64,000 nt of DNA from Desulfobacterales bacterium. Its GTDB lineage: Bacteria; Desulfobacterota; Desulfobacteria; Desulfobacterales; UBA5852. The stretch is from positions 1,024,001 to 1,088,000 of the forward strand of contig CAXXVS010000001.1 in the NCBI GenBank assembly GCA_963674755.2. The letters are read 5' to 3'. Position 1 is the first letter of the stretch. Each line of letters starts with the position of its first letter. Both the position numbers and the translations under genes were made by a program. This document shows, in pieces, positions 20,380-62,851 of this stretch. Below the pieces are notes generated by a model. It ran no database searches. It saw only the letters and a list, made by a program, of their open reading frames with translations, and was not told where the DNA came from.

Positions 20380-20396
20380 TGCGGCGGGAGGTGAGG

Positions 20397-20921
20397 ATGC
20401 ACGCGAAAAAAGAAAAGCCTGTGGCCGAGGAGATCGCCGCGCCGCGCCGGGATTTTCTGTCCTTGTTGTGGGCCGCCCTGGGGCTTGGCGCCCTCGCGGA
20501 GATGATCTGGGTGGCTGGCTCGTTCCTGCGCTCCGGAAAGGGCCAGCGGGCGGGCGGGACAGGGGATACCATCATCGCCGCCGGGGCGGTGACGGCTTTT
20601 CAGCCCGGGACGGTGACGGCCTTTCCCCGGGGACGGTTTTACCTGACCCGGCTGGCCGACGGCGGGTTTCTGGCCCTGTCGCGGCGCTGCCCGCACCTGG
20701 GATGCACGCTGCCCTGGGTCGCGGAAGAAAAGCAGTTCCTGTGCCCCTGCCATTCATCGGCCTTCGATATCCGGGGCGACCTGATCCGCTCACCGGCGCC
20801 CCGGGGCATGGACCTGTACCCGGTGGCCATTGAAAACGCCATTGTCAAAGTCGACACGGCGCGGGTTCTCCGGCGCGACCGGCTTTCGGAGATCCCGGTG
20901 GCCTATCCGCCCAAAGCTTGA
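20397..20921 (+). CDS. Rieske [2Fe-2S] subunit
   Basis: Tat motif RRDFL plus TM; CPHLGC and CPCH. Confidence 0.92.
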   Translation: MHAKKEKPVAEEIAAPRRDFLSLLWAALGLGALAEMIWVAGSFLRSGKGQRAGGTGDTIIAAGAVTAFQPGTVTAFPRGRFYLTRLADGGFLALSRRCPHLGCTLPWVAEEKQFLCPCHSSAFDIRGDLIRSPAPRGMDLYPVAIENAIVKVDTARVLRRDRLSEIPVAYPPKA

Positions 20922-20940
20922 GCGCAACGAATTACCGCCC

Positions 20941-44064: not shown

Positions 44065-46586
44065 GGTTGGCGACCGCCGGGGCCCATGGAAAAATGGGGC
44101 GTGGCCGGCACCCGGCTCAGGAAATGGGCGCTGATTTGCTGGGCGAATTGGATCAAGTGGGCCGCCATGCGTTCCAGGAATTCCGCCAGATCGTCGTGCG
44201 GGTCCCGATTGCCCGGGCAGGCCACGTCGGTCAGATCCAGCAGGCGCACGGCGGTCAGCATTTCCAGGGCCAGGCGTTCTTCCGGTGCGGCAAAGCGGCG
44301 GCTGCCGCGACCGGGCAGATTTTCCACGTGGGACGCCAGCTGGCTGAGCTGGAAGGCCAGAGACTTGGGATTGGTTTCGTCCGCCAGCAGCAGGTCCAGC
44401 ACCGGGGCCAGTTGAAAGGCTGTCCGGTAGCGGCTGCGATAGGTCATGATGCTGTCGGAGACTTCCAACAGGGCTTCCAGGGCGCTGCGGGATGCCGTGC
44501 AAGCCCGGGGGAGGCCGATCCGGATCAGGCGGGTCTGGTTCATGGCCCTTTCAACACGTCGCCCCATGTCCATGAAGCGCCACCCCAACCCGCGGGTCAT
44601 GCTCTCCATGGCCAGTCCGCTGAAGGCGCTGAGGGTGAAGAGGGTGTCGTCCAGCAGCTCCAGCGGATCGTCGGCCTGGGCATCGGCGAAGCTCTCCAGC
44701 CGATTGATGACGCGCCAGGAATCCAGGGAAAGCCGGTCGCGTACATTCCGGGCCGCTTCGCGCACCCGTGCCAGAACCGCCACCACGCTTTCGGGACGAT
44801 CCTGGTTGTATAAGGCTTCTTGCAACTGGGCGCTGAGTTCCCGATAGCGGGGCAAGATCTCACCTTCCCGCAGTGTTCCCGGAAGGGCGCCTTCCGCCAC
44901 AAGCAGATTCAGCAGAAAGGGCAGTTCGGGGATATCGCTCGCCCGGGTTTCGCCGGAAAGCCGGCGGAAGACGGCGCGCAGACGCCGCACCCGCCCTTCG
45001 GAACGTTCCAGATAGCGCCCCAGCCAGAGCAGATGGTCCGCCACCCGACTGGGCAGATCGCTGCCCCGGCTGAACTCGGCCACCTCATGAAGTCCGCCCA
45101 TGAGGCTGAAGGGGACGACAGGCTGGTCGGAAAGGACCCAGACATCTTTGCTCTGCTGCTGTTCCGGCAGATCCCCCGTCAGGGTTCCCACGTCCGTCGC
45201 CGTGATGGCGAGCCCGCCGGGCATTACCGCAAAGCCTTCCGCGGTTGCGCAGACAAAGACCCGCATAAGGGTAAACCGCGCTTCGGCACGGTTGGGGCCC
45301 CAGGCCGGTGCCGTGGCCGGCCGGAGCGGTTCCCGGGCTAAAAAGGCATGTGGGTTCGCCTGGATGGCGGCCCTTAGATCGGTTTCACGATCCGGAGCTC
45401 CGGAGGGGTCCATGGCCGGTTCCACCGTCAGTTGACTTATATTGGACAGGGCGTGATCCAGACCGTCCGGCGTTCCGCACCACCAGGACGGGTGGTTTTC
45501 CAGGAGCAGGTCCTCCCCGGCGAGTTGCCGGTAAAGGGCCGGCAAAAAAACGGCCAGGGCCGGTGTGTCTGCAAAGCCGCTGCCGATGGGGTTGATGACA
45601 TCGACGGATTGCTCCCGGGAAGCCTGGATGAGGCCCGCCACGCCGGCCGTGGTGCCCCGGCGCAGGGCAAAGGGATCGCTGAAGGCATCTGCGGTGTGGC
45701 GGAAAATGGCCTCCACCGGTTCCAAGCCGGCCAGTTTTTTGAGGAAAACCTTACCGTTGCGTACGGTCAGATCCTGGCCTTCCACCAGCGGGTAGCCCAG
45801 GTAGCGGGAGAGCAGGGCATGTTCGAAGTAGATCCGGCTTTCCGGTCCGGGCGTCAGCAGGACGATTCCGGGTTCCTCCCGCGGCAGGGCGGCCCGCTGG
45901 AGCGTGGCCTGGTGAAACGTCTGGAAAAAAGGGGCCAGCCGCCGGATCTGGGCTTTGTGATAGAGCTCCGGGAAGACGCGTGAAATGGCGATCCGGTTTT
46001 CGAGGGCGTAGCCCAGGCCGCAGGGGTTGGCGCCGTAGTCCCGGAGCACCCGGAACCGCCCCCGGGCATCCCGATAGAGATCGGCGGCATAGAAGGTCAG
46101 AAAGCGTTTGCCGACCGGTTGAATGCCGTGGCAGGGGCGCAAAAAGCGGGGATTGGCGAACAGTAGGGCCGGGGGGAGGTGGCCTTCCCTCAGCAAGCGC
46201 TGGGGGCCGTAGACGTCCGCCAGAATCTTCTCCATTACCCGGGCCCGCTGGAGCAGGCCGGCTTCCAGGGCCGCCCACTCCGCCGCCGTGACGAGCAGCG
46301 GCATCACATCCAGAGCCCAGGGGGTGGCGCGTCCGGCGGGATCGTCGAAGAGGTTGAAGGTGGCCCCGTCCTCGTGGCGTCGGCGCCGGACACGGTCCTG
46401 ACGGTTGGCCAGCACCTGGGGACTCATGGCTTCCAGCGCCGCGATGAGAGGTTGCCAGTGGGGCCGCGGCGTACCGGGCGACGCAAACGCTTCGCAATAG
46501 CCTTCCGGGGGACAGGCCAGCACTTCAAACAGCGAAGACGAGGACGGTTGAGAGGATGCCGGCCCGGTCGGTTCGGGAGTGATCAT
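44061..46586 (-). CDS. Circularly permuted type 2 ATP-grasp fused to alpha-E domain
   Basis: GLGYALENR, LLTPGP, MPGGLA, SKDVWV, then SRVADHLLWLGRYLERSE alpha-E motif. Confidence 0.88.
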   Translation of the reverse strand: MITPEPTGPASSQPSSSSLFEVLACPPEGYCEAFASPGTPRPHWQPLIAALEAMSPQVLANRQDRVRRRRHEDGATFNLFDDPAGRATPWALDVMPLLVTAAEWAALEAGLLQRARVMEKILADVYGPQRLLREGHLPPALLFANPRFLRPCHGIQPVGKRFLTFYAADLYRDARGRFRVLRDYGANPCGLGYALENRIAISRVFPELYHKAQIRRLAPFFQTFHQATLQRAALPREEPGIVLLTPGPESRIYFEHALLSRYLGYPLVEGQDLTVRNGKVFLKKLAGLEPVEAIFRHTADAFSDPFALRRGTTAGVAGLIQASREQSVDVINPIGSGFADTPALAVFLPALYRQLAGEDLLLENHPSWWCGTPDGLDHALSNISQLTVEPAMDPSGAPDRETDLRAAIQANPHAFLAREPLRPATAPAWGPNRAEARFTLMRVFVCATAEGFAVMPGGLAITATDVGTLTGDLPEQQQSKDVWVLSDQPVVPFSLMGGLHEVAEFSRGSDLPSRVADHLLWLGRYLERSEGRVRRLRAVFRRLSGETRASDIPELPFLLNLLVAEGALPGTLREGEILPRYRELSAQLQEALYNQDRPESVVAVLARVREAARNVRDRLSLDSWRVINRLESFADAQADDPLELLDDTLFTLSAFSGLAMESMTRGLGWRFMDMGRRVERAMNQTRLIRIGLPRACTASRSALEALLEVSDSIMTYRSRYRTAFQLAPVLDLLLADETNPKSLAFQLSQLASHVENLPGRGSRRFAAPEERLALEMLTAVRLLDLTDVACPGNRDPHDDLAEFLERMAAHLIQFAQQISAHFLSRVPATPHFSMGPGGRQP

Positions 46587-46716
46587 ACCTTGAATGCCTC
46601 AGTAATCAGCCCGGGGCGGACGAGGGTTCATTCCCTGCTGATAACGACGTTACCTTGCCCCAGCGGATACCCGGCTGCCGGACGGTGGGGCCGTTCATTC
46701 GGATACAGGCGCCGGT

Positions 46717-49700
46717 TTACTTGGTTTGCCGCCGCAAATCAAGCGTATAAGGAAAGTCGCGATTGATTTCCGGTGCCGGCGGAGCGAGACGCGCGTCGGG
46801 GGTGTGGCCGCCGGCGATGAAGCGGGCATGGCGCCGCCCCTCGGCTTCGTTGGCATTGACCGGGAATATGTCATAGTTGCGCCCGCCCGGGTGGCCGACA
46901 TGGTAGGTGCAGCCGCCCACCGCCCGTCCCGACCAGGTGTCGAACAGGTCGATCACCAGCGGCGTGTGCACGCCGATGGTGGGGTGCAGACAGGTCGGTG
47001 GTTGCCAAGCCCGGTAGCGGATGCCGGCCACGAAGACCCCCTCCACGGCGGTGGGTTGCAGGGGCACCCGCCGGCCGTTGCAGGTCACGATATAGCGTCC
47101 GCCGGTCATGCCGGAAACTTTCACCTGGAGACGTTCCACCGATGAGTCCACGAAGCGCACGGTGCTCCCGCCGCCGGGCTCCTCGCCCAACACATGCCAG
47201 GGTTCGAGAGCCTGGCGCAGTTCCATTTCCATGCCCTGAAAGGTGACTTGGCCGAAAATGGGAAAGCGGAACTCGAAATGGGGATGGAAAAACGCCATGG
47301 AGACCGGGTAGCCGGCCGCATGGAGGGTCGCCAGCACATCGTCAAAATCGTCTTGCACCGGCTGGGGCAGCATGAAGCGGTCGTGCAACCGGGTACCCCA
47401 ACGGATCAGGTCCTGTCGGTAAGGGGTGCGCCAGAACCAGGCCATGCAAATCCGCAGGAGCAGTTGCTGGGCCAGGCTCATGCGGGCGTGGGGGGGCATC
47501 TCAAAGGCCCGGAACTCCAGCAGGCCCAACCGGCCGGCGGCGCTGTCCGGCGAGTAGAGCTTGTCGATGCAAAACTCGGCCCGGTGGGTGTTGCCGGTGA
47601 CGTCCACCAGCAGGTTGCGGAAGAGCCGGTCCACCAGCCAGAGCGGGCAGGGCCGGTCCGGACCGGTTTGCCGCGCCATTTCGGCAAAGGCGATTTCCAG
47701 CTCGTAGAGGCTGTCATGCCGGGCTTCGTCGATGCGCGGTTGTTGGCTGGTAGGCCCGATGAAAAGCCCCGAGAACAGAAAGGAGAGAGACGGGTGGTTG
47801 TTCCAGAAAGTAACGATGCTGCGCAGGAGGTCCGGCCGGCGCAGAAAAGGGCTGTCGGCCGGTGTGGCCCCGCCTACCACGATATGGTTGCCGCCCCCCG
47901 TACCGGTGTGGCGGCCGTCGAGCATAAACTTTTCCGTTCCCAGGCGGGTCTGGCGGGCGGTTTCGTAAAGCGTGGTGGTGACGGCGACCATTTCCCGCCA
48001 GTTGTGCATGGGCTGGATGTTGACTTCGATCACACCGGGGTCGGGGGTGATTTTGAGGCTGTTCATTCGCGGGTCGTAGGGCGGCGTATAGCCTTCGATG
48101 ACCACGGGGCAGCCGGTCTGGCGGGCCGTGGCCTCGATGGCGGCCGTGAGTTCCAGATATCCTTCCAGGGTCGCCACCGGCGGCATGAAGACGTAAAGGC
48201 GCCCTTCCCGGGGCTGCACGCAAAGGGCGGTGCGGACCACCCAGGCGGCGGATTCGCCGGGCACCGGCTCCGGGGCCTCGTAGGGGCGGGGCTGGGTGCG
48301 AACGCCTTCCCCGGTTTCGGGGGACGGAGCGCCTGCCAGGGCGGTTTGCCCGGCGTGCAGGTCCGGCAGGGGACCTCGCTCGGCCATGGGGTCCAGGGGG
48401 TGATCGTAGGGGAAATCCTTTTTCGAGACCCAGGGCAGCGATTCCAGGGGCAGGCGCAGGCCTGCGGGGGAGTCGCCGGGCAGCAGGTACATGTGTTCCC
48501 CCCGGCAGGGCCAGGGGCCGCTCTTCCAGGAGCCGTGCTGCAGGGGCAGCACATAGCCGGTCACCGCCCCCAGGCCCTGCCGGAAGGTCTCGACCATGCG
48601 GGCCCGGGCCTCGGGGTCCGTCAGGCGCGGGTCGAGCGGATCCACATTCACCGGCAGGCGCTGCTCCTTGTGAAGGTAGTACAGGATGTCCTCGTAAGCC
48701 GGGCGGATGAAGTCCCGCCGCACCCCCAGGGTATCGGCCAGAGCCTCGATGAAGACCTTGGCTTCGGTGGCCCCGAAGCCATAGTCCCGGTCCACGTCGG
48801 CAATCCAGCGGTCGTCTTCCCACACCGGCTTACCGTCCTGGCGCCAGTAGCAGCCCAGGGCCCAGCGGGGCAGGGATTCGCCGGGATACCATTTACCCTG
48901 GCCGTAGTGGAGGAGGCCGCCGGGGGCCCATTGGGCGCGCAGTTGCTTGATCAGGTGTTCGGACAGCCGGCGTTTGTCCTCCCCCAGGGCGGCGGTGTTC
49001 CACTGGTCGCCGTCCATGTCGTCGATGGAGACGAAGGTGGGCTCGCCCCCCATGGTGAGACGCACGTCGGCCGCCGCCAGTTCCCGGTCCACCTGGTCCC
49101 CCAGGGAGACGATGGCGGACCACACGTCCTCCGGATAGGGCCGGGTGGCGCGGGGGGCTTCCCACAGGCGCTGCACCTCCATATGGTGGCTGAATTCCAC
49201 TTCGCATTCGTCCACCGCGCCGGAGACGGGGGCGGCGCTCTGGGGCTCCGGGGAGCAGGCCAGGGGAATGTGCCCCTCGCCGGCAAACAGGCCCGACGTG
49301 GGGTCCAGTCCCACCCAGCCGGCCCCGGGCAGATAGACTTCGGTCCAGGCATGCAAATCGGTGAAATCAGCCTCCGGCCCGGAAGGACCGTCCAGGGATT
49401 TCACGTCCGCCGCCAGTTGGATGAGGTAGCCGGAGGCAAAGCGGGCGGCCAGGCCCAGATGACGCAGGATGTTGACCAGCAGCCAGGCCGAGTCCCGGCA
49501 GGAGCCGCTTCCCAGGGTCAGGGTCTGCTCGCAGCTCTGCACGTTGGGCTCCATGCGGATCAGGTAGCGGATGTCGCTGGTCAGCTTCTGGTTCAGCTTC
49601 ACCAGAAAGTCGATGATCTGCTCGGGAGCGCGGTCGATTTCCGCCAGATAGGCCGCGAAAGCCTTGCCCGGCGCTTCAGCGGCCAGGTAAGGGGCCAGAT

Positions 49701-50037
49701 CCGATTTCAGCTTGGGGTCGTAGGTGAAGGGAAAGGTTTCCGTCTCCGGTTCCAGAAAGAAATCGAAGGGATTGATGACGATCATATCGGCCACCAGATC
49801 GATTTCCACACGGAATTCGCGTGTTTTTTCCGGGAACACCAGGCGGCCTAAATAGTTGCTGAAGGGATCCTGCTGCCAGTTGATGAAATGGTCCCGGGGG
49901 GTCACCGTCATGGAATAGCTCAGGATGGGGGTGCGGCAATGGGGTGCCGGCCGCAGGCGGACGATCTGCGGCGAGAGGGTTACACGCCGGTCGTAGCGGT
50001 AGCTGGTTTTGTGGTTCAGGGCAATATGGATTCCCAC
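46717..50037 (-). CDS. Transglutaminase fused to DUF2126 putative amidoligase
   Basis: GSCRDSAW, DLHAW, TMGGEPTF, TPDPGVIEVN, GTGGGNH, EFRAFEMPP. Confidence 0.9.
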   Translation of the reverse strand: MGIHIALNHKTSYRYDRRVTLSPQIVRLRPAPHCRTPILSYSMTVTPRDHFINWQQDPFSNYLGRLVFPEKTREFRVEIDLVADMIVINPFDFFLEPETETFPFTYDPKLKSDLAPYLAAEAPGKAFAAYLAEIDRAPEQIIDFLVKLNQKLTSDIRYLIRMEPNVQSCEQTLTLGSGSCRDSAWLLVNILRHLGLAARFASGYLIQLAADVKSLDGPSGPEADFTDLHAWTEVYLPGAGWVGLDPTSGLFAGEGHIPLACSPEPQSAAPVSGAVDECEVEFSHHMEVQRLWEAPRATRPYPEDVWSAIVSLGDQVDRELAAADVRLTMGGEPTFVSIDDMDGDQWNTAALGEDKRRLSEHLIKQLRAQWAPGGLLHYGQGKWYPGESLPRWALGCYWRQDGKPVWEDDRWIADVDRDYGFGATEAKVFIEALADTLGVRRDFIRPAYEDILYYLHKEQRLPVNVDPLDPRLTDPEARARMVETFRQGLGAVTGYVLPLQHGSWKSGPWPCRGEHMYLLPGDSPAGLRLPLESLPWVSKKDFPYDHPLDPMAERGPLPDLHAGQTALAGAPSPETGEGVRTQPRPYEAPEPVPGESAAWVVRTALCVQPREGRLYVFMPPVATLEGYLELTAAIEATARQTGCPVVIEGYTPPYDPRMNSLKITPDPGVIEVNIQPMHNWREMVAVTTTLYETARQTRLGTEKFMLDGRHTGTGGGNHIVVGGATPADSPFLRRPDLLRSIVTFWNNHPSLSFLFSGLFIGPTSQQPRIDEARHDSLYELEIAFAEMARQTGPDRPCPLWLVDRLFRNLLVDVTGNTHRAEFCIDKLYSPDSAAGRLGLLEFRAFEMPPHARMSLAQQLLLRICMAWFWRTPYRQDLIRWGTRLHDRFMLPQPVQDDFDDVLATLHAAGYPVSMAFFHPHFEFRFPIFGQVTFQGMEMELRQALEPWHVLGEEPGGGSTVRFVDSSVERLQVKVSGMTGGRYIVTCNGRRVPLQPTAVEGVFVAGIRYRAWQPPTCLHPTIGVHTPLVIDLFDTWSGRAVGGCTYHVGHPGGRNYDIFPVNANEAEGRRHARFIAGGHTPDARLAPPAPEINRDFPYTLDLRRQTK

Positions 50038-50076
50038 AGGCGGTCCTTTCTGAAAGCGGCAGCCGGCACCGTTCGG

Positions 50077-51051
50077 CTATTGTTCCTGCGTGGCGGCCTC
50101 GATCAGCGTTTGGAGGTTGAAAAAGGTGGTGCCGATGGCTTCGTCCACCTCGTTGAGACGGCTTTGCAACCCGTCCATATATTCGTGCATGCCGTGGGCG
50201 ACCACTTCATCGACATCCGTATAGGCCAGATCCGAAGCGAGCCGGCCCAGGCGTTTCTCGGCCGCGTTTTGGGCCGACCCGGGCGGTGAGCCGCTAATCC
50301 GGTGCAGGCAAATTTGCGCCTTGGCGACGCAATGGCGGATGGAGCGCGGGAACTGGCTGTCGAAAATGAGAAAATCCGCCACATTGCGGGGGGTGATGCG
50401 ATGATGGGTCTTGCGGAACATCTCAAAGGCACTGGCGGATTTCAACACGGCCATCCACTGGATATTGTCCACCGGGGTATTCACCAGATCCGCCTGGGGG
50501 AGCAGCATGAAGTACTTCACGTCCAGAATGCGGGAAGTTTTGTCCGCCCGCTCCATCATCATGCCGATGCGGGCGAAGTTCCAGGCCTCGCCATGGCTCA
50601 TGGTGGAGTCCAGTAGGCCGGTGAACAAGTGGCTGCGCATCTGGATGATTTTGAAAAAGCGGTGGGGCTCCTCCAGGGCCAGGGTAACGCTCCGGTTATC
50701 GGCCAGCTCGAGGTAGAAATTGTTCAGGTGCTCCCACATCTCCGAGGAGATGATCTCCCGGATCGAGCGGCCGTTCTCGCGGGCGGCGGCCAGGCAGGCC
50801 AGGATCGAGTTGGCGTAGGCTTTGTCGAAAGTCAGGAAGCGGATCACGGCTTCCTGGTCGTAGTCGGGATAATGCGCCTCGAACAACGCCTGGTCGCCGG
50901 TGGTCATCACCACCGGCTCCCAGTGCTTGCCCTTTTCCGAGGGCATGTCCAGCAGCAGGTTGAGGTTGACGCTGATGAAGCGGGCTACGTTTTCCGCCCG
51001 TTCGATATAGCGGCACATCCAGTAGATCGAGTTGGCCACACGGCTGAGCAT
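50077..51051 (-). CDS. Alpha-E domain protein
   Basis: MLSRVANSIYWMCRYIERAENVAR, ARENGRSIR, ERADKTSRILDVK, FPRSI. Confidence 0.92.
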   Translation of the reverse strand: MLSRVANSIYWMCRYIERAENVARFISVNLNLLLDMPSEKGKHWEPVVMTTGDQALFEAHYPDYDQEAVIRFLTFDKAYANSILACLAAARENGRSIREIISSEMWEHLNNFYLELADNRSVTLALEEPHRFFKIIQMRSHLFTGLLDSTMSHGEAWNFARIGMMMERADKTSRILDVKYFMLLPQADLVNTPVDNIQWMAVLKSASAFEMFRKTHHRITPRNVADFLIFDSQFPRSIRHCVAKAQICLHRISGSPPGSAQNAAEKRLGRLASDLAYTDVDEVVAHGMHEYMDGLQSRLNEVDEAIGTTFFNLQTLIEAATQEQ

Positions 51052-51067
51052 TTGGGTCCCTCCTTAT

Positions 51068-51210
51068 TTGACCTTTCAGAAACGGCATCTTTTGGCCCAT
51101 GCCTGCGTTCTCCCGATATTGAAATCCTCGACGTAGCCCTGCTACGCCTCCGGCTTCAATATCGCTGCGGCCTTGGCCTGAACCAAAATCTATCATTTCT
51201 GCCTGGTCAA
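51068..51210. repeat. ERIC-like long-hairpin repeat, copy 1
   Basis: Terminal IR TTGACC..CAGAAA / TTTCTG..GGTCAA; inner CGATATTGAA/TTCAATATCG and CGTAGC/GCTACG. Confidence 0.7.
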
Positions 51211-51232
51211 CACTTACAGTGATATGCCTACC

Positions 51233-51374
51233 AAGTCTGTTTGAAAATGTTTCACTTCGGTCAAGATCACGGCGATGGATCATTCCAACCGCAGGCATAC
51301 ATTTCGTAAGTCGAGGGTTGAAATGTGAGCTCAACGCTGAAATGGGTCGAAATGGGATGTTTTGCAATTGACTT
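51233..51374. repeat. ERIC-like long-hairpin repeat, copy 2 (inverted relative to copy 1)
   Basis: AAGTC...GACTT ends; collinear motifs shared with the reverse complement of copy 1. Confidence 0.6.
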
Positions 51375-52807
51375 TAAAGCACCCAGGTGTCCTTGCTGCC
51401 GCCCCCCTGGGAAGAGTTTACCACCAGGGATCCTTTGGTGAGGGCCACCCGGGTCAGGCCGCCGGGCTGGACGTAAATGTCCTCTCCGAAAATCACATAG
51501 GGCCGCAGGTCTACGTGGCGTCCCTCGATGCGGTCGCCCACGATGGTGGGCACCCGGGAGAGGGAAATGGTCGGTTGGGCCATGTAGTTGCGGGGTTCGG
51601 CCGCGATCTTGGCGGCGAAGGCCGCCCGCTCCGCTTCGGTGGCATGGGGACCCACCAGCATGCCGTAGCCGCCGGATTCGTTGGCCGCCTTGACCACCAA
51701 CTGGTCGAGATGCGCCAGCACATAGGCCCGGTCCTCATCGTTGCGGCAGATATAGGTGGGCACGTTGGGCAGAATGGCGTCTTCGCCGGTATAGTAGCGG
51801 ATGATCTTGGGCACGTAGGCGTAAATCACCTTGTCGTCGGCGATGCCGGTGCCCGGTGCGTTGGCCATGGCCAGGCGGCCGGTCTTGTAGACCCCGATGA
51901 GGCCCTTGACCCCCAAAAGGGAATCGGGGCGGAAGACTTCCGGATCGATGAAGTCGTCGTCGATGCGCCGGTAGAGGACATCCACCCGCTGAAGCCCCTT
52001 GGTGGTGAGCATGTGGACATAGCCGTCGGCGACCACCAGATCCTGGCCCTCCACCAGTTCCACCCCCATTTGCTGGGAAAGAAAGGAGTGTTCGAAATAG
52101 GCGCTGTTGTAAATGCCGGGGGTCAGGACCCCTATGGTGGGGGATTGGATCTGCTCCGGGGCCAGGTAGGCCAGCATTTCCAGCAGTTTGGCGGGGTAGT
52201 CGTCCACCGGTCGAACCTGGGAGGCCTGGAAGACCTGGGGGAAAGTGCGTTTGAGCACCTGACGGTTCTCCAGCACATAGGAAACGCCCGAGGGGCAGCG
52301 CAAGTTGTCCTCCAGCACATAGAAGCGCCCGTCCTGATCCCGCACCAGGTCGGTGCCGGTGACATGGCACCAGATGCCCCGCGGCGGGGTGAACCCCTCA
52401 CATTCCGGGCGGTAGGTGCGGCTGGTAAGGACCAGTTCCTCGGGGACCACCTTGTCTTTGAGGATTTTTTTGTCGTTGTAGACGTCCTGGAGGAATTCGT
52501 TGAGCGCGAAAATCCGCTGTTTCAGCCCGTTTTCGATCTGCTGCCAGTCGTTGCCGGAAACGATGCGGGGAATGATGTCGAAGGGAAAGATCTTCTCGGT
52601 GCCCTCGTCGCGTCCGTACACATTAAACGTAATGCCCATCTTGAGAAGCAGGGCTTCGGCCGCCTTCTGGCGCATGGCCAGGCCGCCGGCCGGCAGGGAT
52701 TCGATTTTGTCCACCAGCAGCCGGGCGCCGGGCCGGGGGGTGCCGTCGGCCTCGATTAGCTCGTCGTAGTAGTCCCCTGGTTCATAACTTCCAAATGTTG
52801 CCGTCAT
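51374..52807 (-). CDS. Circularly permuted type 2 ATP-grasp protein
   Basis: FPFDIIPR, LEDNLRCPSGVSYVLENR, LYRRIDDDF, ESGGYG, RHVDLRP, VVNSSQGGGSKDTWV. Confidence 0.93.
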   Translation of the reverse strand: MTATFGSYEPGDYYDELIEADGTPRPGARLLVDKIESLPAGGLAMRQKAAEALLLKMGITFNVYGRDEGTEKIFPFDIIPRIVSGNDWQQIENGLKQRIFALNEFLQDVYNDKKILKDKVVPEELVLTSRTYRPECEGFTPPRGIWCHVTGTDLVRDQDGRFYVLEDNLRCPSGVSYVLENRQVLKRTFPQVFQASQVRPVDDYPAKLLEMLAYLAPEQIQSPTIGVLTPGIYNSAYFEHSFLSQQMGVELVEGQDLVVADGYVHMLTTKGLQRVDVLYRRIDDDFIDPEVFRPDSLLGVKGLIGVYKTGRLAMANAPGTGIADDKVIYAYVPKIIRYYTGEDAILPNVPTYICRNDEDRAYVLAHLDQLVVKAANESGGYGMLVGPHATEAERAAFAAKIAAEPRNYMAQPTISLSRVPTIVGDRIEGRHVDLRPYVIFGEDIYVQPGGLTRVALTKGSLVVNSSQGGGSKDTWVL

Positions 52808-55739: not shown

Positions 55740-55775
55740 TTGACTTTATTAGGGTAACGGTGTTACGCTAATAAA
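55740..55775 (+). promoter_or_regulatory. Promoter with overlapping palindromic operator upstream of tetR
   Basis: TTGACT -35 with TACGCT -10; inverted repeat TTTATTAG-G-GTAAC-GGT-GTTAC-G-CTAATAAA (55745-55775). Confidence 0.7.
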
Positions 55776-55802
55776 ATTAAATGCTCAGGGAGAGGACCGG
55801 CC

Positions 55803-56468
55803 GTGCCCAAACCCCAACGCAGCCTTCAAGAAATCGAAGCCGTCCGGGAAGATATTCTCCACCATGCCCTGGAACTGATCGTGCAGGACGGATTCCAGGG
55901 TTTCAGTATGCGCAAACTGGCAGTCCGCCTGGGCATTGCCGCCAAAACCATCTACAATTACTACCGCAACCAGGACGAGCTCTACCTCTGCATTCTGATC
56001 AAGGGGTTCGAACAGCTCCACGCCGCTTCCGAAGCGGCGGTCCGCGCGGCCGGGCAGCCCCAGGAACAATTGGAAGCCGCCATCCGGGCTTACGTGGATT
56101 TCGGTCTGGCCAATCCCCACCTCTACAACCTGATGTTCACCTGGCATGTGCCCAAATACAACGACTATGTGGGCACACCCATGGAAAAAGCGGCCTATCG
56201 CGAACTGACGGCGGCGTTGAAGTGTGCGGATCTTTTCCTGGCCATCATGGCGGCCTGCCGGGCGGAGGCGGCACCCATGAGCGAAGACGATTTGCGCTTC
56301 GAGATGATTCAGATCTGGTCCCAGATGCACGGCTATGTGGCCGGCATCAACAATTCGCTGCTGGACTACATGCACGCAAGCCCGCGTGCGCTCCAGCCGC
56401 GCATCATCGATCGTCTGATCCGCAATACCCGGCAGGCACTCCAAACCATGGACGAAAAGCGGAATTGA
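55803..56468 (+). CDS. TetR/AcrR-family regulator
   Basis: FSMRKLAVRLGIAAKTIYNYYRNQDEL HTH; WHG-like WSQMHG. Confidence 0.92.
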   Translation: MPKPQRSLQEIEAVREDILHHALELIVQDGFQGFSMRKLAVRLGIAAKTIYNYYRNQDELYLCILIKGFEQLHAASEAAVRAAGQPQEQLEAAIRAYVDFGLANPHLYNLMFTWHVPKYNDYVGTPMEKAAYRELTAALKCADLFLAIMAACRAEAAPMSEDDLRFEMIQIWSQMHGYVAGINNSLLDYMHASPRALQPRIIDRLIRNTRQALQTMDEKRN

Positions 56469-56505
56469 GAATATGAAAACACAGTTATCTACCCGGTAAA
56501 GACGA

Positions 56506-57471
56506 TTGCCCATGACCGCATCCCATACGCCCGATGAGATCCCCCCATCCGCCGAAGCGGCCCCTCTGATTCTGGACGTCAAAGGCAATGCCCTCGATGA
56601 CGGGCCGGGCATCCGATCGGTGGTCTTTTTCAAAGGATGCCCGTTGGCCTGCGTCTGGTGCCACAACCCCGAGAGCAAAAAGGCACTCCCGGAACTGGCC
56701 TTCGATGCCAAGGCCTGCACCGGTTGCGAGGCCTGCCTGGCGGTCTGCGACGCCGACGCCCTGGCACGGGGGAATCCCGGCTATGTCGACCGGCAGGTTT
56801 GCCGGCAATGCTTTGCCTGTGCGGCGGTCTGTCCCTCGGGCGCGCTGGCGCAGGTGGGGCAGGTGATGCCCGTTGAAGGGCTGGTCGAGAAACTTCTCAG
56901 GGACAAGCCGTTCTATGACACGTCCGGCGGCGGGGTCACCTTCTCAGGGGGCGAACCCACCCTGTTCATGCCCTACCTGTCGTCCCTGGCCGCTGCCCTG
57001 CAGGCTGCGGGGGTTTCGACCCTGCTCGAAACCTGCGGGCATTTCGATGCGGATCGGTTTGAGACGCGGGTGCTGCCCCACCTGGATGCCATCTACTTCG
57101 ATCTGAAACTCTTCGATGGGGAGCGGCACCGGCGTTACTGCGGCCTGCCCAACGACATCATCCTGACCAATTTTATCCGTTTATGGGCGCTTTCCCGCGG
57201 GAGCCACTTCTCCTTGTTGCCCCGGATTCCACTGGTTCCCGGCCTAACGGCCACCCAGGCCAACATTCGCGCCTGGGTGTCCTTTCTGAAAACCCACCGA
57301 GTCGGCCGGGTTAAACTGCTGGCCTATAACCCCTTGTGGCCGGCCAAGGCCGCCCGCATTGGAGAAGACAACCCCCATGCAGCCGCGGCAGCGCTGCAGG
57401 ACTGGATGCCGCCGGCCGATGTGGCCCGCCTGGAAGGCCTGTTCCATGAGGCCGGTATCGAAACGCTTTAA
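56506..57471 (+). CDS. Glycyl-radical enzyme activating enzyme (radical SAM with ferredoxin insert)
   Basis: DGPGIRSVVFFKGCPLACVWCHNPES; CTGCEACLAVC and CRQCFACAAVCP; GGVTFSGGEP. Confidence 0.95.
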   Translation: MPMTASHTPDEIPPSAEAAPLILDVKGNALDDGPGIRSVVFFKGCPLACVWCHNPESKKALPELAFDAKACTGCEACLAVCDADALARGNPGYVDRQVCRQCFACAAVCPSGALAQVGQVMPVEGLVEKLLRDKPFYDTSGGGVTFSGGEPTLFMPYLSSLAAALQAAGVSTLLETCGHFDADRFETRVLPHLDAIYFDLKLFDGERHRRYCGLPNDIILTNFIRLWALSRGSHFSLLPRIPLVPGLTATQANIRAWVSFLKTHRVGRVKLLAYNPLWPAKAARIGEDNPHAAAAALQDWMPPADVARLEGLFHEAGIETL

Positions 57472-57491
57472 GAATTCGGGGAGACATCACC

Positions 57492-58268
57492 ATGACATAC
57501 GACCTTAACGGAAAAGCCGTGGTTCTGACCGGGGGCAGCCGCGGCATCGGGCGATGCGTCGCCGTGCAGTTGGCCGGGGCCGGTGCCCGGCTGGTTGTGC
57601 TGGCCCGGGATGTGGCCGCCTTGCAGGACACCGTGGGCCAGGTGGCTGCCGCCGGGGGGCAGGCTGTTGCGATCCCCTGCGACGTGACCGACGAGGCCTC
57701 TGTCCGCAGCGCGGTCGAACAGGCCGCCCGGGCCCTGGACGGGATCGATGTCTTCATGAACATTGCCGGCGTCACGCTGCAGAAACCCCTGCTGGAGGCC
57801 ACGGATGACGACGTACGCCGCGTCATGGAGACCAACCTGCTGGGGGTGCTGCGCTGCTGCCGCCATGCCGTGCCTTTTCTGAAAGCGCGCCGCGGGGTGC
57901 TGGTCAATGTGGCCAGCATCATCGTCAGCAACCCCTTCCCCCATATGGGGGTTTACGCCTGCTCCAAGTGGGCCCTGGCCGCCCTCAGCCACACCCTGCG
58001 GCAGGAGCTCCACGGCGGCGGCGTACGGGTGCTCACCGTCTATCCCGCCGTGGTGCGCACCGGCATGCTGGCCCAGGAGCCGGTCCTGGCCCTCACCCCG
58101 ACCCAATCACCGGAGGTCTGCGCCCGGGCCATCGTCAGGGCCCTCCAAAAAGGCCGTCAAGAGGCCAGCACGGCTTGGCTGCCCAAGATCAGCGGGGCCC
58201 TGTTCAAGCTGCATGCGCCCTGGTGTGACCGCATCAATCGCCTCTTTTTACCCCGGGCCTTCAAATGA
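57492..58268 (+). CDS. Short-chain dehydrogenase/reductase
   Basis: TGGSRGIG, NIAG, NVAS, YACSK. Confidence 0.93.
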   Translation: MTYDLNGKAVVLTGGSRGIGRCVAVQLAGAGARLVVLARDVAALQDTVGQVAAAGGQAVAIPCDVTDEASVRSAVEQAARALDGIDVFMNIAGVTLQKPLLEATDDDVRRVMETNLLGVLRCCRHAVPFLKARRGVLVNVASIIVSNPFPHMGVYACSKWALAALSHTLRQELHGGGVRVLTVYPAVVRTGMLAQEPVLALTPTQSPEVCARAIVRALQKGRQEASTAWLPKISGALFKLHAPWCDRINRLFLPRAFK

Positions 58269-58305
58269 TCCTATGGGGACCTTTTTAAATGAAGGAGGTG
58301 TCGTC

Positions 58306-61300
58306 ATGGTCCTGTTGCAACCCGCAGCGTCGAACGATTTTTCCCCGCCGCACACCGGCCGGTCCGCCATGCACTGGGTAGTCAAATTGCTCCTGGGGCT
58401 CATGGCGGCCAGCTTTCGCTATCGCCCCGCCCTGCGGCGCTGTCTGCGAAGCGATCAGGGCTGGATCAATTTTACGGCCGGCATCCGGACGCGTTCCGGA
58501 TCGATCCAGGCGGCCATCCGCTTCAAGGACGGACGGGTGTCCGTGCGGAGCGGCCTGCCCGAGGACACGGATATTGCCCTGGTGTTCCGGTCGGATGCCG
58601 CCGTGCGCCGATTCCTTACGGCCACGCCCACCGAGCAGGTCACCATGATCCTCCAAAACGATTTCTACACGCTGGGCAACGTTTCCTACCTGAACCTCTT
58701 CGTCTATTGTCTCTCCCTGCTGCTCAGCAAGCAACAGATCCGGCAGATGGAAAAAGAGCGGCGGAAGGCCCGCCAAGACCTGCTCGAAACATCCCCCAGC
58801 GCCCAACCCCAACTGGTCGATGAATTCACGGCGCGACGGGCCAATCCCTTGAAGGGAACCCGGGTCGACCCCGGCGTCCGCTATCTCGAAGACCCTTACC
58901 TGGGCGCTTATCGCCTGGAGGATTTCCCCCGGGTGGCGGCCTTTCTGGACGCCCATTTCGAGACCCGGGCCGAGGTTTGCCCCGAACTGCCGAAGCTGGT
59001 GACCGACTGGCACAAGGCCAACGGCTATGAGACCGACATGGCGGGGCGCCCCTGGAATCCGATTTTGCGCAAGGCCCTCTGCTACAAGCACACCATGGCC
59101 AAGCGGCGTCCCATCATTCGGGAAAACGATCTGATTGCCGGGACCACTACCACCAAGGCGATCGGCGTGGTGGTCTACCCGGAGGGCCACGGCACCATGA
59201 TCTGGGGGGAGCTGCTGACCGTACCCCACCGGTCGCTCAATCCTTACGACGTGGCCCCGGAGACCCGGCGCCTGCTGCACCACGAGGTGTTTCCCTATTG
59301 GATCCAGCGCAACTTCAAGGAATGGGTGCGGCAAAAGTACGACCAGCCCCTCTGCCAGCAGATCGACGAGCGCTGGGCCGTGTATTTCAACTGGAAGTCA
59401 GTGACCATTTCCCACACCATCCCGGATTTTCCCAAGATCCTGCGGCTGGGGGCCCGGGGCATCATCGCGGAAATCGAGGCCGAACGGGCCGCCGAGCCCG
59501 ACGATCCCGGGAAGACCGCCACCCGGCAGGCCATGATCCTGTGCCTGGAGGGTCTCATGACCTATGCCGCCAACCTCTCCCGCCAGGCGGCGATCGAGGC
59601 CCGCCAAGCCGATGACCCCGCGCGTCGGGCTGAACTTGAAAACCTGGCCCGCATCTGCAGGCAGGTGGTGGCCCATCCGGCCCGCACCCTGGATGAAGCG
59701 GTCAACGCCGTCTGGATCACTTGGGTCGGCCTCCATATGGAGAGCACCAACGCGGGGCTGTCCCTGGGACGGCTCGACCAGTGGCTGCAGCCCTATTTCG
59801 AGGCGGACATGGTCCTGCGGGACCGGCCGGAGGATCGGGAGGCCTATCTGCGCTACGCCATCGAGCTGATCAGCTGTTTCATGTTGCGCTGCACAGACCA
59901 TCTTCCCCTGACGCCGGATTTCGCCAACTACTACTTTGGCGGCAGTTCCTCAGACCAGGCCATCACCCTGGGCGGGGTCACGCCGGAAGGCGAGGATGCC
60001 GTCAACGACATGACCTACATCTTCCTCAAGGTCACCGAAATGCTCAGCCTGCGGGACCCCAACGTCAATGCCCGCTACAATGGGGCGCAGAACAGCGACG
60101 TCTATCTCAAGCGTCTCTGCGACGTCAACCTGACCACCGCGGCGACCCCTTCCCTGCACAACGACGAGGCCATCTGGCAATCCCTGGCGGAGTTCGACTA
60201 CGCTCCGGAAGACTTGCGCAACTGGTCGGCCACGGGCTGTGTCGAGCCCACCCTTTCGGGCCGGCACATGGGCCATACCAATTTCCAGATGATCAGCCTG
60301 GTGGCAGCCCTGGAGATGGCCTTGAACAACGGGCGCCACCCCCTCATGGACTGGAAGCTCGGACCGGACACGGGGGAGGTGGAGGACGGGGACTTTGCCA
60401 CTTTCGACCAGTTTTTCGAGGCCTTCACCCGGCAGATGGGCTTTCTCGTCGCGCAATCCATCCAGTACAATGAAATGCTGGCCCGGGCCCACCAGGTGAT
60501 CCGCCCCACCCCGCTGCTCTCCACCCTGATCGAGGACTGCATTCGCACCGGCCGGGACGCTACCCGGGGCGGCGCCCGCTACAACAGCTCGGGGGCGGCC
60601 TGTATCGGCCTGGCCGACGTCACGGATTCCCTGCTGGTGATCAAACAACTGGTCTTCGACGAGGGGCGGGTATCCTTCGCGGACCTGAAGCGGGCCATCG
60701 ACACCAATTTCGAAGACGATCCGGCCCTGCATGCCCTGGTGACCCGCAAAGTACCCCTGTTCGGGTCGGGCAGCGCAGCCGCGGTGGCCATGGCCAACCG
60801 CGTTACCCGCTTCGTCCACGATACCTATGGAAGCTACCCCCACTACCGGGGCGGGCGCTACACGGCCGGCTTCTGGTCCATGTCCAACCACGTGGCCTAC
60901 GGCACCCTGGCCGGCGCCCTGCCTTCCGGGCGCCTGGCGGGCAAACCCTTCACCCCCGGGCTGACCCCCCAGCCGGCGGCCTCCACCAATCTGCTGGACA
61001 ACCTGCGGGACGTGGCCGCCTTGGAGCCGCGTAACATGAACAACAACATCGCCTTCAACGTGAAGGTGGTGCCCGGCGCCGGGGAGCCCCGCACCCGGAC
61101 CGTGGACACCATGTTCGCCTACGTGAAAACCTATTTTCAGCTCGGCGGCATGCAGATGCAGATGAACGTGGTCACCTCCGCGATGCTGCGCGACGCCATG
61201 GCCCACCCGGAAAACTACCGCAACCTGCTGGTGCGCATTTCCGGCTACAACGCCTATTTCGTGACCCTCAACCGGAACATGCAGCAGGAGCTGATCGAGC

Positions 61301-61320
61301 GGGCGGAATACGGATTATGA
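58306..61320 (+). CDS. Glycyl radical enzyme (non-PFL, eliminase-type Cys loop) with N-terminal SCP2-like extension
   Basis: 1004 aa from SD-supported ATG 58306; SLGRLDQ, TGCVEP, LLVRISGY. Confidence 0.9.
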   Translation: MVLLQPAASNDFSPPHTGRSAMHWVVKLLLGLMAASFRYRPALRRCLRSDQGWINFTAGIRTRSGSIQAAIRFKDGRVSVRSGLPEDTDIALVFRSDAAVRRFLTATPTEQVTMILQNDFYTLGNVSYLNLFVYCLSLLLSKQQIRQMEKERRKARQDLLETSPSAQPQLVDEFTARRANPLKGTRVDPGVRYLEDPYLGAYRLEDFPRVAAFLDAHFETRAEVCPELPKLVTDWHKANGYETDMAGRPWNPILRKALCYKHTMAKRRPIIRENDLIAGTTTTKAIGVVVYPEGHGTMIWGELLTVPHRSLNPYDVAPETRRLLHHEVFPYWIQRNFKEWVRQKYDQPLCQQIDERWAVYFNWKSVTISHTIPDFPKILRLGARGIIAEIEAERAAEPDDPGKTATRQAMILCLEGLMTYAANLSRQAAIEARQADDPARRAELENLARICRQVVAHPARTLDEAVNAVWITWVGLHMESTNAGLSLGRLDQWLQPYFEADMVLRDRPEDREAYLRYAIELISCFMLRCTDHLPLTPDFANYYFGGSSSDQAITLGGVTPEGEDAVNDMTYIFLKVTEMLSLRDPNVNARYNGAQNSDVYLKRLCDVNLTTAATPSLHNDEAIWQSLAEFDYAPEDLRNWSATGCVEPTLSGRHMGHTNFQMISLVAALEMALNNGRHPLMDWKLGPDTGEVEDGDFATFDQFFEAFTRQMGFLVAQSIQYNEMLARAHQVIRPTPLLSTLIEDCIRTGRDATRGGARYNSSGAACIGLADVTDSLLVIKQLVFDEGRVSFADLKRAIDTNFEDDPALHALVTRKVPLFGSGSAAAVAMANRVTRFVHDTYGSYPHYRGGRYTAGFWSMSNHVAYGTLAGALPSGRLAGKPFTPGLTPQPAASTNLLDNLRDVAALEPRNMNNNIAFNVKVVPGAGEPRTRTVDTMFAYVKTYFQLGGMQMQMNVVTSAMLRDAMAHPENYRNLLVRISGYNAYFVTLNRNMQQELIERAEYGL

Positions 61321-61324
61321 AAGG

Positions 61325-62851
61325 ATGAAGACACATATGATGACGCGGCGCAGTTATCAAAACGGCAGGCGACTCGTGCTTTGGCGCGCATGGGCGCGGG
61401 GGATGTTGGGCCTCTTCTGGATCGGGTCGATGGTGCTTCTTGGGGGGCATACGGCTGCCGCGGCGACCGGCAATACTGAACCGGCGCCGCGGCCCAACGT
61501 CATCATCGTTTACTGCGACGACTTGGGCTATGGCGATCTGGGGTGCTACGGCAGCCGGGCCATCGCCACACCCCACGTGGACCGGCTGGCCCGGGAAGGG
61601 GTGCGCATGACCGACTACTACGCCTGCAATGCCATCTGCGCCCCCTCCCGGGCCGGACTGCTGACAGGCCGCTACCCCTTCCGATCAGGGGTCATCGGCA
61701 ACATCTACCCCAAGGACGAACCCTTTACCCGCCGGGCTGCCCGGGAGTACGTGGGGGGATCCTTGCGGGGACTGGGGGTTCTCGATTTGCGGGAAGGGGA
61801 GGTGGTTTCCGGCATTCCATCCAAGGAGCTGCTCCTCGGCGAAGCCCTGCAGACCGCAGGCTACCACACCGCCATGGTGGGCAAGTGGCACCTGGGGGAC
61901 TACAGCATCGACCCGGCTTACAACCCCCGGCGCAACGGGTTCGATTTCTACCTCGGGCTGCCCCACAGCAACGATATGCGGCCCTGCCCCCTGTACCATA
62001 ACGAGGAGATGCTGCAAGCGGATATCGGCACCGACCAGGCCAAGTTGACCGGCCTTTATACCCGGGAAGCCGTACGGTTCATCAAAGAGGCCGGCCGGGA
62101 GCCCTTTTTTCTTTACGTGGCCCACACCTTTCCCCATCAGCCCCTGTACGCTTCGGCGCAATTTGAGGGTCAATCCAAGGCCAGCAAATTCGGGGATGCG
62201 GTGGAGGAAATCGACTGGAGTGTGGGCCAAATCATGACGACGCTGCAGGAGGCGGGGGTTGCGGATAATACCCTTGTTTTTTTCACCAGCGACAACGGCC
62301 CCTGGTTCGAGGGCAGCCCCGGCCCTTTCCGGGGGCGCAAGGGGCAAAGCTACGAGGGCGGTTTCCACGTGCCCATGATCGCCCACTGGCCCGCCGGGCT
62401 GCCGGCCGGACGGGTATGCCGGGTACCCTGGATGAATATCGATCTCTATCCCACCATCCTGGCCCTGGCCGGGGTGCCCCTGCCCGACGACCGCGTGATC
62501 GACGGACGGGACATCCTGGGGCTGCTCGCCGGCCGGGAGATCCGGGCCCCCCACGAAGCGCTCTTCTTCTACCACTACGATCAACTGGAAGGCCTCCGCT
62601 CCGGCCAATGGAAGTATTTCCGTCGGATCAACCGGTATGTATGGCCCATCCCCCTCGATGCGACTCCACTAGTGAACAAGTTGGGCGGCAGCCAATTGGG
62701 CAACCGCTGGCCGTTACTCTACAATCTCGACTTGGATCCGGGCGAAAGCTACAATGTCATCGCCACCCATCCGGAGGTGGCCGAGCGGCTGGCCACCCTG
62801 TTGGAGCGCTGGGAAGCGGACAACGCACAGAATCCGGGGGGCTGGCGGTAG
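61325..62851 (+). CDS. Exported Cys-type (formylglycine) sulfatase
   Basis: PNVIIVYCDDLGYGD, CAPSRAGLLTGRY, GKWHLG, FTSDNG; RR-containing signal peptide. Confidence 0.93.
   Translation: MKTHMMTRRSYQNGRRLVLWRAWARGMLGLFWIGSMVLLGGHTAAAATGNTEPAPRPNVIIVYCDDLGYGDLGCYGSRAIATPHVDRLAREGVRMTDYYACNAICAPSRAGLLTGRYPFRSGVIGNIYPKDEPFTRRAAREYVGGSLRGLGVLDLREGEVVSGIPSKELLLGEALQTAGYHTAMVGKWHLGDYSIDPAYNPRRNGFDFYLGLPHSNDMRPCPLYHNEEMLQADIGTDQAKLTGLYTREAVRFIKEAGREPFFLYVAHTFPHQPLYASAQFEGQSKASKFGDAVEEIDWSVGQIMTTLQEAGVADNTLVFFTSDNGPWFEGSPGPFRGRKGQSYEGGFHVPMIAHWPAGLPAGRVCRVPWMNIDLYPTILALAGVPLPDDRVIDGRDILGLLAGREIRAPHEALFFYHYDQLEGLRSGQWKYFRRINRYVWPIPLDATPLVNKLGGSQLGNRWPLLYNLDLDPGESYNVIATHPEVAERLATLLERWEADNAQNPGGWR

Follow-up and report, generated by a model that had tools for sequence, protein, structure and literature searches.

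A conserved SCP2-fused glycyl radical enzyme family of anaerobic bacteria, probably a lipid-directed eliminase and possibly acting on sphingoid bases

We analysed a 64,000-nucleotide stretch of DNA from a Desulfobacterales bacterium (hereafter the window; gene coordinates are window positions), in which one operon encodes a glycyl radical enzyme (GRE) with an N-terminal domain of SCP2 fold. This GRE (58306..61320, + strand, 1004 aa) is of the eliminase type and represents a real, conserved and uncharacterised GRE class, here termed SCP2-GRE. The genes, the fold, the residues typical of eliminases, a clade of its own, the conserved upstream box and the genomic associations are established, and they suggest that the family is probably a lipid-directed catabolic eliminase in general. 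Its substrates are tentatively proposed to be long-chain sphingoid amino-diols, such as sphinganine (a 2-amino-1,3-diol), which are our most specific testable guess; that these bases would be cleaved with loss of ammonia, making the enzyme a sphingoid-base ammonia-lyase, is a more doubtful refinement.

The start of the GRE was set by a ribosome-binding site and by homologues. The protein scores over the cut-offs of Pfam PF02901 (PFL-like) and PF01228 (Gly_radical), which, together with its Foldseek fold and an adjacent TIGR02494-type activase, places it in the glycyl radical enzyme superfamily. An earlier note on this DNA had pointed to a RISGY glycyl motif and a single-Cys GCVEP loop; both are present, and they are invariant (Gly980 and Cys645/Glu647, respectively) in all 123 family rows aligned, as are Lys364, Asn482 and Trp857. 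His370 is found in 122/123 rows, and Asp550 and Asn659 in 113/123 each. In an alignment with Clostridium butyricum glycerol dehydratase (GD), His164, Cys433, Glu435 and Gly763 of that enzyme correspond to His370, Cys645, Glu647 and Gly980, whereas GD His281, Ser282, Tyr339, Asp447, Tyr640 and Ser642, which we take to be pocket residues, are replaced by Ala483, Gly484, Asp550, Asn659, Trp857 and Met859. The family-specific pocket comprises Lys364, Asn482, Asp550, Asn659, Trp857 and Met859. The retention of Cys, Glu and His amid different surrounding residues thus indicates a GRE of the eliminase type whose pocket is distinctive. A 2026 review of GREs (PMC13450708, of which part of the text is used here), whose numbering of GD His164, Cys433 and Glu435 is followed, assigns Cys-x-Glu plus a His164-type residue to 1,2-elimination (section 5.6). 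The Cys-x-Glu element is present as Cys645/Glu647 in 123/123 rows, and elimination itself is predicted from it.

The SCP2 fusion, also claimed in the earlier note, was borne out by fold. When residues 1–155 of the AlphaFold model (predicted local distance difference test, pLDDT, 85.5) were searched with Foldseek, all listed rows down to rank 46 were SCP2 folds (best E 3.6e-6); these structural matches are distant (9–18% identity). The domain covers about residues 21–162, including a long linker helix (58366..58791, + strand), and the fusion is retained across the GRE family. Pfam PF02036 gave no match in the window GRE itself and weak matches in 17 of the 47 homologous N-termini (best E 2.3e-4), and a sequence-profile search of the PDB with the N-terminal domain gave spurious matches only. 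Stand-alone SCP2-like genes also occur in linked clusters (loci L054 and L013). Judged from the model, the SCP2 domain is likely a lipid carrier.

The GRE falls below all NCBIfam cut-offs, the best score being 485 bits against 678 for a broad PFL2/GD family. Its nearest PDB sequence is Archaeoglobus fulgidus PFL2 (2F3O, E 2e-112), and the nearest folds to its AlphaFold model (pLDDT 85.2) in Foldseek are those of propanediol dehydratase, PFL2, CutC and GD, at 26–29% identity. A homologue search returned 816 matches among 8000 scored candidates, and the best 119 non-self matches listed are 64–83% identical and about 1000 aa long. Homologues are spread across metagenome-assembled genomes (MAGs) of Desulfobacterales, Smithellaceae, Spirochaetota, Actinomycetota and Chloroflexota; the matches listed also include one from Desulfatibacillum aliphaticivorans, a carrier that looks culturable. 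The earlier note had called for a tree with characterised GREs. In a quick IQ-TREE tree of 140 catalytic cores (from 142, with one non-GRE row and one short row left out), the 123 rows form a single clade (SH-aLRT 100, stem 1.27) apart from GD, the propanediol-dehydratase-type GrpM, CutC, HypD, PflD and YbiW, that is, outside every characterised class in a tree that holds no IslA, HplG, HpyG/HpzG, decarboxylases or BSS and carries long-branch warnings on its outgroups. Up to three diverged SCP2-GRE paralogues (44–68% identity) occur per genome (G018, G060, G123 and others), and some are altered at pocket positions 550 and 659; these changes suggest more than one substrate in the wider family.

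Several other GREs were encountered during this survey. The host encodes four besides the SCP2-GRE, one of them HypD (NF043068 score 1239) and three below every cut-off. A second uncharacterised GRE class with a GCLEN loop forms a 100* clade on a long branch (L078:8394-10910 = G000:C3; L056:5912-8428; L059:14000-16513); it stands in tandem with SCP2-GRE in two Chloroflexota loci and as a separate copy in the host (67% identity). Another host GRE, with a GCLEP loop and below all cut-offs (L081:3864-14041, G000:C2), lies in an operon that, judged by N-terminal sequences, encodes an extended short-chain dehydrogenase/reductase (SDR) and a further SDR, two subunits of a CoA-transferase, an acyl-CoA dehydrogenase, a protein resembling PrpD and a small one resembling SCP2; the stretch examined around it yielded no activase gene. 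Furthermore, a GRE with its activase was found on plasmids of Acinetobacter towneri and Moraxella osloensis (L232:4887-7292, L080:9164-11557), which is unexpected in these aerobic genera. In the tree, this GRE and one of the host's together form the sister group of the SCP2-GRE clade, a placement possibly due to long-branch attraction.

The SCP2-GRE gene is the fourth of five co-oriented + strand open reading frames (55803–62851), the same five genes that had been claimed before. They begin with a TetR-family regulator (55803..56468, 221 aa; Pfam TetR_N and TetR_C_33) and a GRE activating enzyme (56512..57471; alternative TTG start at 56506), a radical S-adenosylmethionine (SAM) protein with two ferredoxin-type motifs that scores 249.9 bits with TIGR02494 (cut-off 174.35) and falls under every substrate-specific activase cut-off. 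A classical SDR of a small, tight family (57492..58268, 258 aa; Pfam adh_short) precedes the GRE, and a Cys-type formylglycine sulfatase of uncertain start, 61325 or 61403 (61325..62851; Pfam Sulfatase), follows it. The intergenic gaps are 43 bp between TetR and activase (37 with the TTG start), 20 bp between activase and SDR, 37 bp between SDR and GRE, and 4 or 82 bp between GRE and sulfatase with the starts at 61325 and 61403, respectively, so that the previously reported gaps under 40 bp hold for the earlier starts and fail with the later activase and sulfatase starts. The operon is flanked by divergent groES/groEL on one side and a convergent 2-hydroxyacid dehydrogenase gene on the other. 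Microcompartment genes had been reported as missing, and none was seen in or next to the operon in a scan that did not take in all window genes. The host genome (6.7 Mb, 97% complete) has Desulfobacteraceae MAGs as its nearest relatives. An equivalent five-gene operon, likewise at a groES locus, was observed in a genome of the same genus (G541:C4, L236) with most genes frameshifted, by either decay or long-read assembly error.

Upstream of tetR we found a palindromic candidate operator (55745..55775) that the earlier note had left unnamed. Its core, TAAC-N3-GTTA, lies at 55755–55765, its 14-bp arms match at 13/14 positions, and a TTGACT hexamer stands just ahead of it at 55740. The box is conserved upstream of orthologues: the exact core occurs in 44/59 upstream regions of non-identical TetR orthologues (shuffles: mean 0.3, maximum 3), and tandem boxes 14 bases apart occur in 37/59; a TTGAC hexamer shortly ahead of the box appears in most rows, by eye and uncounted. 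These data support the control of the operon by TetR that had been proposed, with TetR predicted to bind this box and likely to be an autorepressor. A regulon search of five genomes gave a tandem match in three, where the operator was located at GRE operons only. The host has 15 other exact cores, a number that does not exceed a rough chance estimate, and the five with known gene context adjoin unrelated genes. The box therefore marks no wider regulon and provides no clue to the substrate. A scan for sigma-70 promoters and terminators gave nothing above shuffles, the TTGACT site being uncalled.

To describe the neighbourhood of the family, we examined 74 genome loci, 67 metagenome loci and 21 regions chosen on purpose; 159 loci were collapsed into 98 groups at 90% identity, and neighbours were counted within 5 kb. 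The activase is found near the GRE in 77 groups, TetR in 46 and any of three SDR types in 24, namely an SDR automatically labelled 3-dehydrosphinganine reductase (KDSR) in 15, an extended 3Beta_HSD-like SDR in 12 and the window-type SDR in 4 (window counted). Zinc alcohol dehydrogenase and class III aminotransferase genes occur in six groups each, sulfatase in four (window counted) plus one further link across a contig break, and a maturase-like radical SAM gene in one. The pooled SDR and sulfatase counts are biased upward because of the 21 regions chosen on purpose. In the 58 groups whose sequence extends 3 kb or more to each side, activase, TetR, any SDR and sulfatase are found in 50, 33, 16 and 2, respectively, and the 74 unselected genome loci contain sulfatase in two and the window-type SDR in one. 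The SDR and sulfatase neighbourhood, whose conservation the earlier note had proposed checking, is thus not the conserved unit of the family. The window SDR has about 54 close homologues, and its type was detected in 3/61 relatives and 1/401 phylum genomes, its own genome counted.

After activase and TetR, the most frequent extra partner of the GRE is the KDSR-labelled SDR. This name was given to 17 of the 29 proteins with a Joint Genome Institute (JGI) name among 120 matches listed, and the automatic annotation of the ESM Atlas cluster agrees with it. In an unselected sample of 151 genomes of the host's order, 8 of the 22 GRE-carrying genomes have the KDSR-labelled SDR no more than about 3 kb from the GRE. 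This SDR is scattered over the GRE tree (16/123 rows, at least 10 changes) and is often fused to, or paired with, an extended SDR. Other genes adjoin the GRE as well: a gene resembling sphingosine 1-phosphate (S1P) lyase and a kinase gene lie directly upstream in L040, a thiamine pyrophosphate (TPP) enzyme resembling 2-hydroxyacyl-CoA lyase (HACL) belongs to a module adjoining the GRE in two loci, and genes for an FGGY kinase and GlpD follow the operon in L068 and are close to it in L147. The host, too, has S1P-lyase-like, HACL-like and GlpD/oxidase/kinase modules, located elsewhere in its genome. The HACL-like module recurs as TetR, zinc alcohol dehydrogenase, small SCP2-like protein and HACL-like TPP enzyme (L075:9769-14730 = G000:C3; L013; L054) and is separate from the GRE in the host. 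A class III aminotransferase/DUF6206 pair was observed close to the GRE in L015 and in several loci of Actinomycetota (L004, L015, L016, L020, L032; in the host, L076:6077-9659 = G000:C2); after the host pair comes the gene for a protein that has an N-terminal Cys and no Pfam match at 1e-8, presumably Ntn-hydrolase-like.

The sulfatase carries a CAPSR (CxPxR) motif at Cys105 and scores 207.6 bits with PF00884, in line with S1 sulfatases, and among solved structures it is closest to steryl-sulfatase, GALNS and arylsulfatase A. It had been described as exported, and it probably is, judging from clear twin-arginine leaders in several orthologues, but the window copy shows no more than a moderately hydrophobic stretch. 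Links of a sulfatase to the GRE were found in the window genus (the window, L001/L083/L084 and the frameshifted copy in G541), in the Leptospirales contig L035 and in G066, where two overlapping contig ends give the order TetR-activase-GRE-sulfatase-radical SAM/SPASM; in G015 the gene after the GRE is a similar radical SAM/SPASM gene, and the sulfatase is encoded in another part of the genome. From its architecture and position, we take this radical SAM/SPASM gene to encode an anaerobic sulfatase maturase. A sulfatase or maturase-like gene flanks the GRE in four lineages (6/98 locus groups) and, among full-length rows, in three places on the GRE tree; since the sulfatase link recurs in separate branches, it is probably not due to chance. 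Most GRE carriers have no sulfatase, so that a sulfate ester is one source of substrate at most, and the sulfatase is a recurrent but accessory module. No anaerobic sulfatase maturase (TIGR03942) was found over the cut-off in the host genome, where PF03781 has two matches, one a stand-alone 254-aa gene. In G015:C58 (L214:190-7628), the sulfatase orthologue is divergent from genes for a penicillin-amidase-family hydrolase and an amino-acid permease.

Next to gene neighbourhood, genome-wide co-occurrence was compared between the 22 GRE carriers and the 129 other genomes of the order sample, using self-chosen thresholds; related genomes are not independent and genome size is uncontrolled, so that Fisher p-values overstate the associations. 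Neutral ceramidase (PF04734) is present in 9/22 carriers versus 1/129 others, and the nine genomes span six families; the ceramidase genes are unlinked to the GRE, and one match checked against the PDB hit Pseudomonas and human neutral ceramidase (E 2e-164). The KDSR-labelled SDR occurs in 12/22 carriers (8 adjacent to the GRE) versus 6/129, the HACL-like TPP enzyme in 12/22 versus 5/129, and the sulfatase orthologue in 4/22 versus 3/129. The control Lipase_3 showed no enrichment (3/22 versus 25/129), and a search for the acid-ceramidase-type PF15508 was uninformative, with no match anywhere, controls included.

KDSR, ceramidase, HACL, S1P lyase and arylsulfatase A belong to eukaryotic sphingolipid turnover. 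The convergence of genes resembling all five on one lipid class tips the balance towards a sphingoid substrate. We propose a radical 1,2-elimination at the head of a long-chain lipid that would be held by the SCP2 domain. A lipid or its product would bind TetR and release the operator, and the activase would generate the Gly980 radical, to be relayed to Cys645. With the alkyl tail seated in the SCP2 domain, the thiyl radical would take a hydrogen from the carbinol carbon while Glu647 binds the OH of that carbon; with the help of His370 and Asp550, the amino group (or OH) on the neighbouring carbon would leave, giving a 3-hydroxy fatty aldehyde or a 1-hydroxy-3-ketone; a co-encoded SDR or zinc alcohol dehydrogenase could then adjust the carbonyl for beta-oxidation. 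In a minority of lineages, the window's included, the sulfatase, likely exported, would begin by removing sulfate from a precursor, for example a sulfatide-type lipid. Asp550, acidic where GD has Tyr339 and CutC has Phe, would suit an ammonium group. The remainder of the sphingoid proposal would be dehydration, for example of phytosphingosine to 3-ketosphinganine, the natural KDSR substrate.

A number of observations weigh against sphingoid bases as the substrate. The window SDR is not an orthologue of the KDSR-labelled set (best 30–35% identity), which was not found in the host at the threshold used, and 74/98 groups, many on short contigs, have none of the three SDR types. TSC10, a solved KDSR (8JAT), ranks only 29th among PDB sequences with the SDR-family profile and 12th with the single sequence, and KDSR-like sequence is a poor predictor of activity, 3/12 candidates having been active according to the part of PMC11211663 used here. 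PF04734 ceramidase was not found in the host at the threshold used and is present in only 13 of 50 other GRE-carrying genomes, taken from the 74 that supplied genome loci (MAGs with no matched control); of the ten ceramidase matches in the order sample, five are strong and five weak (E above 1e-60). The S1P-lyase-like gene is not clearly enriched (9/22 versus 30/129, p 0.11). Moreover, an ether-lipid-type FAD oxidase is enriched in carriers as well (17/22 versus 27/129), so that part of the signal may reflect a shared lipid-scavenging lifestyle.

This oxidase bears directly on the main rival explanation, in which the GRE would dehydrate 1-O-alkylglycerols, similar glycerol-headed lipids or long-chain 1,2-diols by a glycerol-dehydratase-like reaction with an alkyl tail, yielding 3-alkoxypropanal or a fatty aldehyde. 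We consider it rather unlikely. The best structural matches (propanediol dehydratase 5I2G and A. fulgidus PFL2) and the kept equivalents of His164, Cys433 and Glu435 are consistent with such chemistry, as are the FGGY kinase and GlpD genes by the GRE operon in L068 and L147 and the enrichment of the FAD oxidase of the GlpD/oxidase/FGGY-kinase cluster, which we take to be alkyl-DHAP-synthase-like and for which Pfam gives only an FAD-linked oxidase. However, GD His281, Ser282, Tyr339, Asp447 and Tyr640 are all replaced in the GRE, 27 of the 44 genomes with the FAD oxidase have no GRE, and the ceramidase and KDSR-label associations would be left unexplained. The interpretation of the earlier note is less probable: there the entire operon would be dedicated to a sulfated steroid, a bile alcohol or an alkyl-diol sulfate, from which the sulfatase would free an alcohol for the GRE and SDR to process. 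Steryl-sulfatase as the nearest solved sulfatase, the sulfatase or maturase-like genes after the GRE in the window genus, L035, G066 and G015, the frequent extended SDRs with 3Beta_HSD matches (12/98 groups) and the enrichment of sulfatase orthologues would fit it. Against this, 92/98 groups have neither sulfatase nor maturase-like gene and the pocket is nearly invariant across them, which means that what the GRE acts on cannot hinge on the sulfatase; the host yielded no anaerobic maturase over the cut-off, and no steroid-degradation genes were found in the neighbourhoods scanned. Of that interpretation, the eliminase-type GRE, the SCP2 domain, the TetR control and a probably lipophilic substrate stand; the sulfated substrate has partial support, and the place of the SDR and sulfatase as core components is weakened.

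It is more improbable still that the substrate is small or soluble (or that the enzyme is an isomerase), with the SCP2 domain serving only membrane anchoring, effector binding or assembly. All characterised eliminases in the part of PMC13450708 used here have small polar substrates, the resemblance to SCP2 is a distant, structural one, and the invariant Lys364 could bind an anion; on the other side, the fusion is retained family-wide, stand-alone SCP2-like genes stand in linked clusters, and the enriched partner genes act on lipids. Alkylsuccinate-synthase-type addition was rejected on account of the Cys-x-Glu motif and of much weaker BSS/MasD matches.

Two further clusters were observed in the window. 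Five genes at 43189–52807 (− strand) encode, by Pfam, two circularly permuted ATP-grasp proteins, alpha-E proteins and two transglutaminase-like proteins (one DUF2126-fused), a known conserved neighbourhood of peptide-ligase type; those at 19033–23253 (+ strand) encode a cytochrome b, a small, maybe Rieske-like membrane protein and a multiheme cytochrome c with TPR repeats.

In the open-access literature we found no description of the SCP2-GRE family, including in searches on anaerobic sphingosine degradation and alkylglycerol ether cleavage, although supplements may hold the clade as an unnamed network cluster; likewise, no radical elimination route on a free sphingoid base was described in the literature searched. 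The part of PMC13450708 used here gives six C–O, one C–N and three C–S eliminases, none acting on a lipid, and neither "sphing" nor "sterol" occurs in the text of the review. If the ammonia-lyase proposal is true, this family would add a second class of C–N 1,2-eliminase and be the first among GREs to act on a membrane lipid. A GRE acting on sphingoid bases, fed by ceramidase and, in some lineages, by sulfatase, would give anaerobes of sediment, sludge and the subsurface an oxygen-independent and S1P-lyase-independent digestion of sphingolipids from dead cells; it would explain the anaerobic removal of the sphingolipid amino-diol head and add radical C–N or C–O chemistry on long-chain substrates. 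With a named substrate class, a conserved operator and culturable-looking carriers, the function of the GRE is directly testable.

Compared with known systems, GD (C. butyricum, 1R8W/1R9D) and propanediol dehydratase (5I2G, 9RCO) share with the window GRE a common barrel (TM-score 0.91–0.93 by target length), the Gly radical motif, Cys-x-Glu and the His164 equivalent. In contrast, identity is 28–29%, only His164 is kept from their pocket set (His164, His281, Ser282, Tyr/Phe339, Asp447, Tyr640), with Ala, Gly, Asp, Asn and Trp in place of His281, Ser282, Tyr339, Asp447 and Tyr640, and the window GRE has an extra SCP2 domain, a separate clade and no microcompartment genes beside it. CutC, the only C–N 1,2-eliminase given in the part of PMC13450708 used here, resembles the window GRE in Cys-x-Glu, in the Thr after the Cys loop (aligned with Thr658) and in the C–N elimination proposed for it, but the score is 379.9 bits against the TIGR04394 cut-off of 1050, and the trimethylammonium-binding Asp, Tyr and Phe are replaced by His370, a variable residue and Asp550. 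For HypD the score is 373 bits against the NF043068 cut-off of 1100; pyruvate formate-lyase has a Cys-Cys pair where the window GRE has a single Cys (TIGR01255, 116 versus 994 bits). The uncharacterised A. fulgidus PFL2 (2F3O), the best PDB sequence match, has His and Met at the same pocket positions but is 29% identical and has no N-terminal extension. The sulfite-lyases IslA, IseG and HpsG, along with HpfG, are likewise GRE 1,2-eliminases of sulfate or sulfite reducers acting on sulfur-bearing substrates; in C–S lyases, two Arg and one Gln anchor the sulfonate (PMC13450708). The window GRE scores about 343 bits against a cut-off of 1000. The anchors are not at its aligned positions, which hold Val/Ala366, His370 and Gly855 and which we placed via an assumed His164/Gln193 equivalence in an alignment with no bona fide IslA sequence. 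Sulfonate C–S cleavage, including desulfonation of the sulfonolipid capnine, is unlikely given the absence of this Arg/Gln/Arg set. Finally, eukaryote-type sphingolipid catabolism, which runs through ceramidase, sphingosine kinase, S1P lyase and HACL2, has the same proposed substrate class, and homologues of several of its enzymes co-occur with or flank SCP2-GRE; unlike that route, however, a radical elimination from the free base would need neither phosphorylation nor the pyridoxal-phosphate-dependent C–C cleavage.

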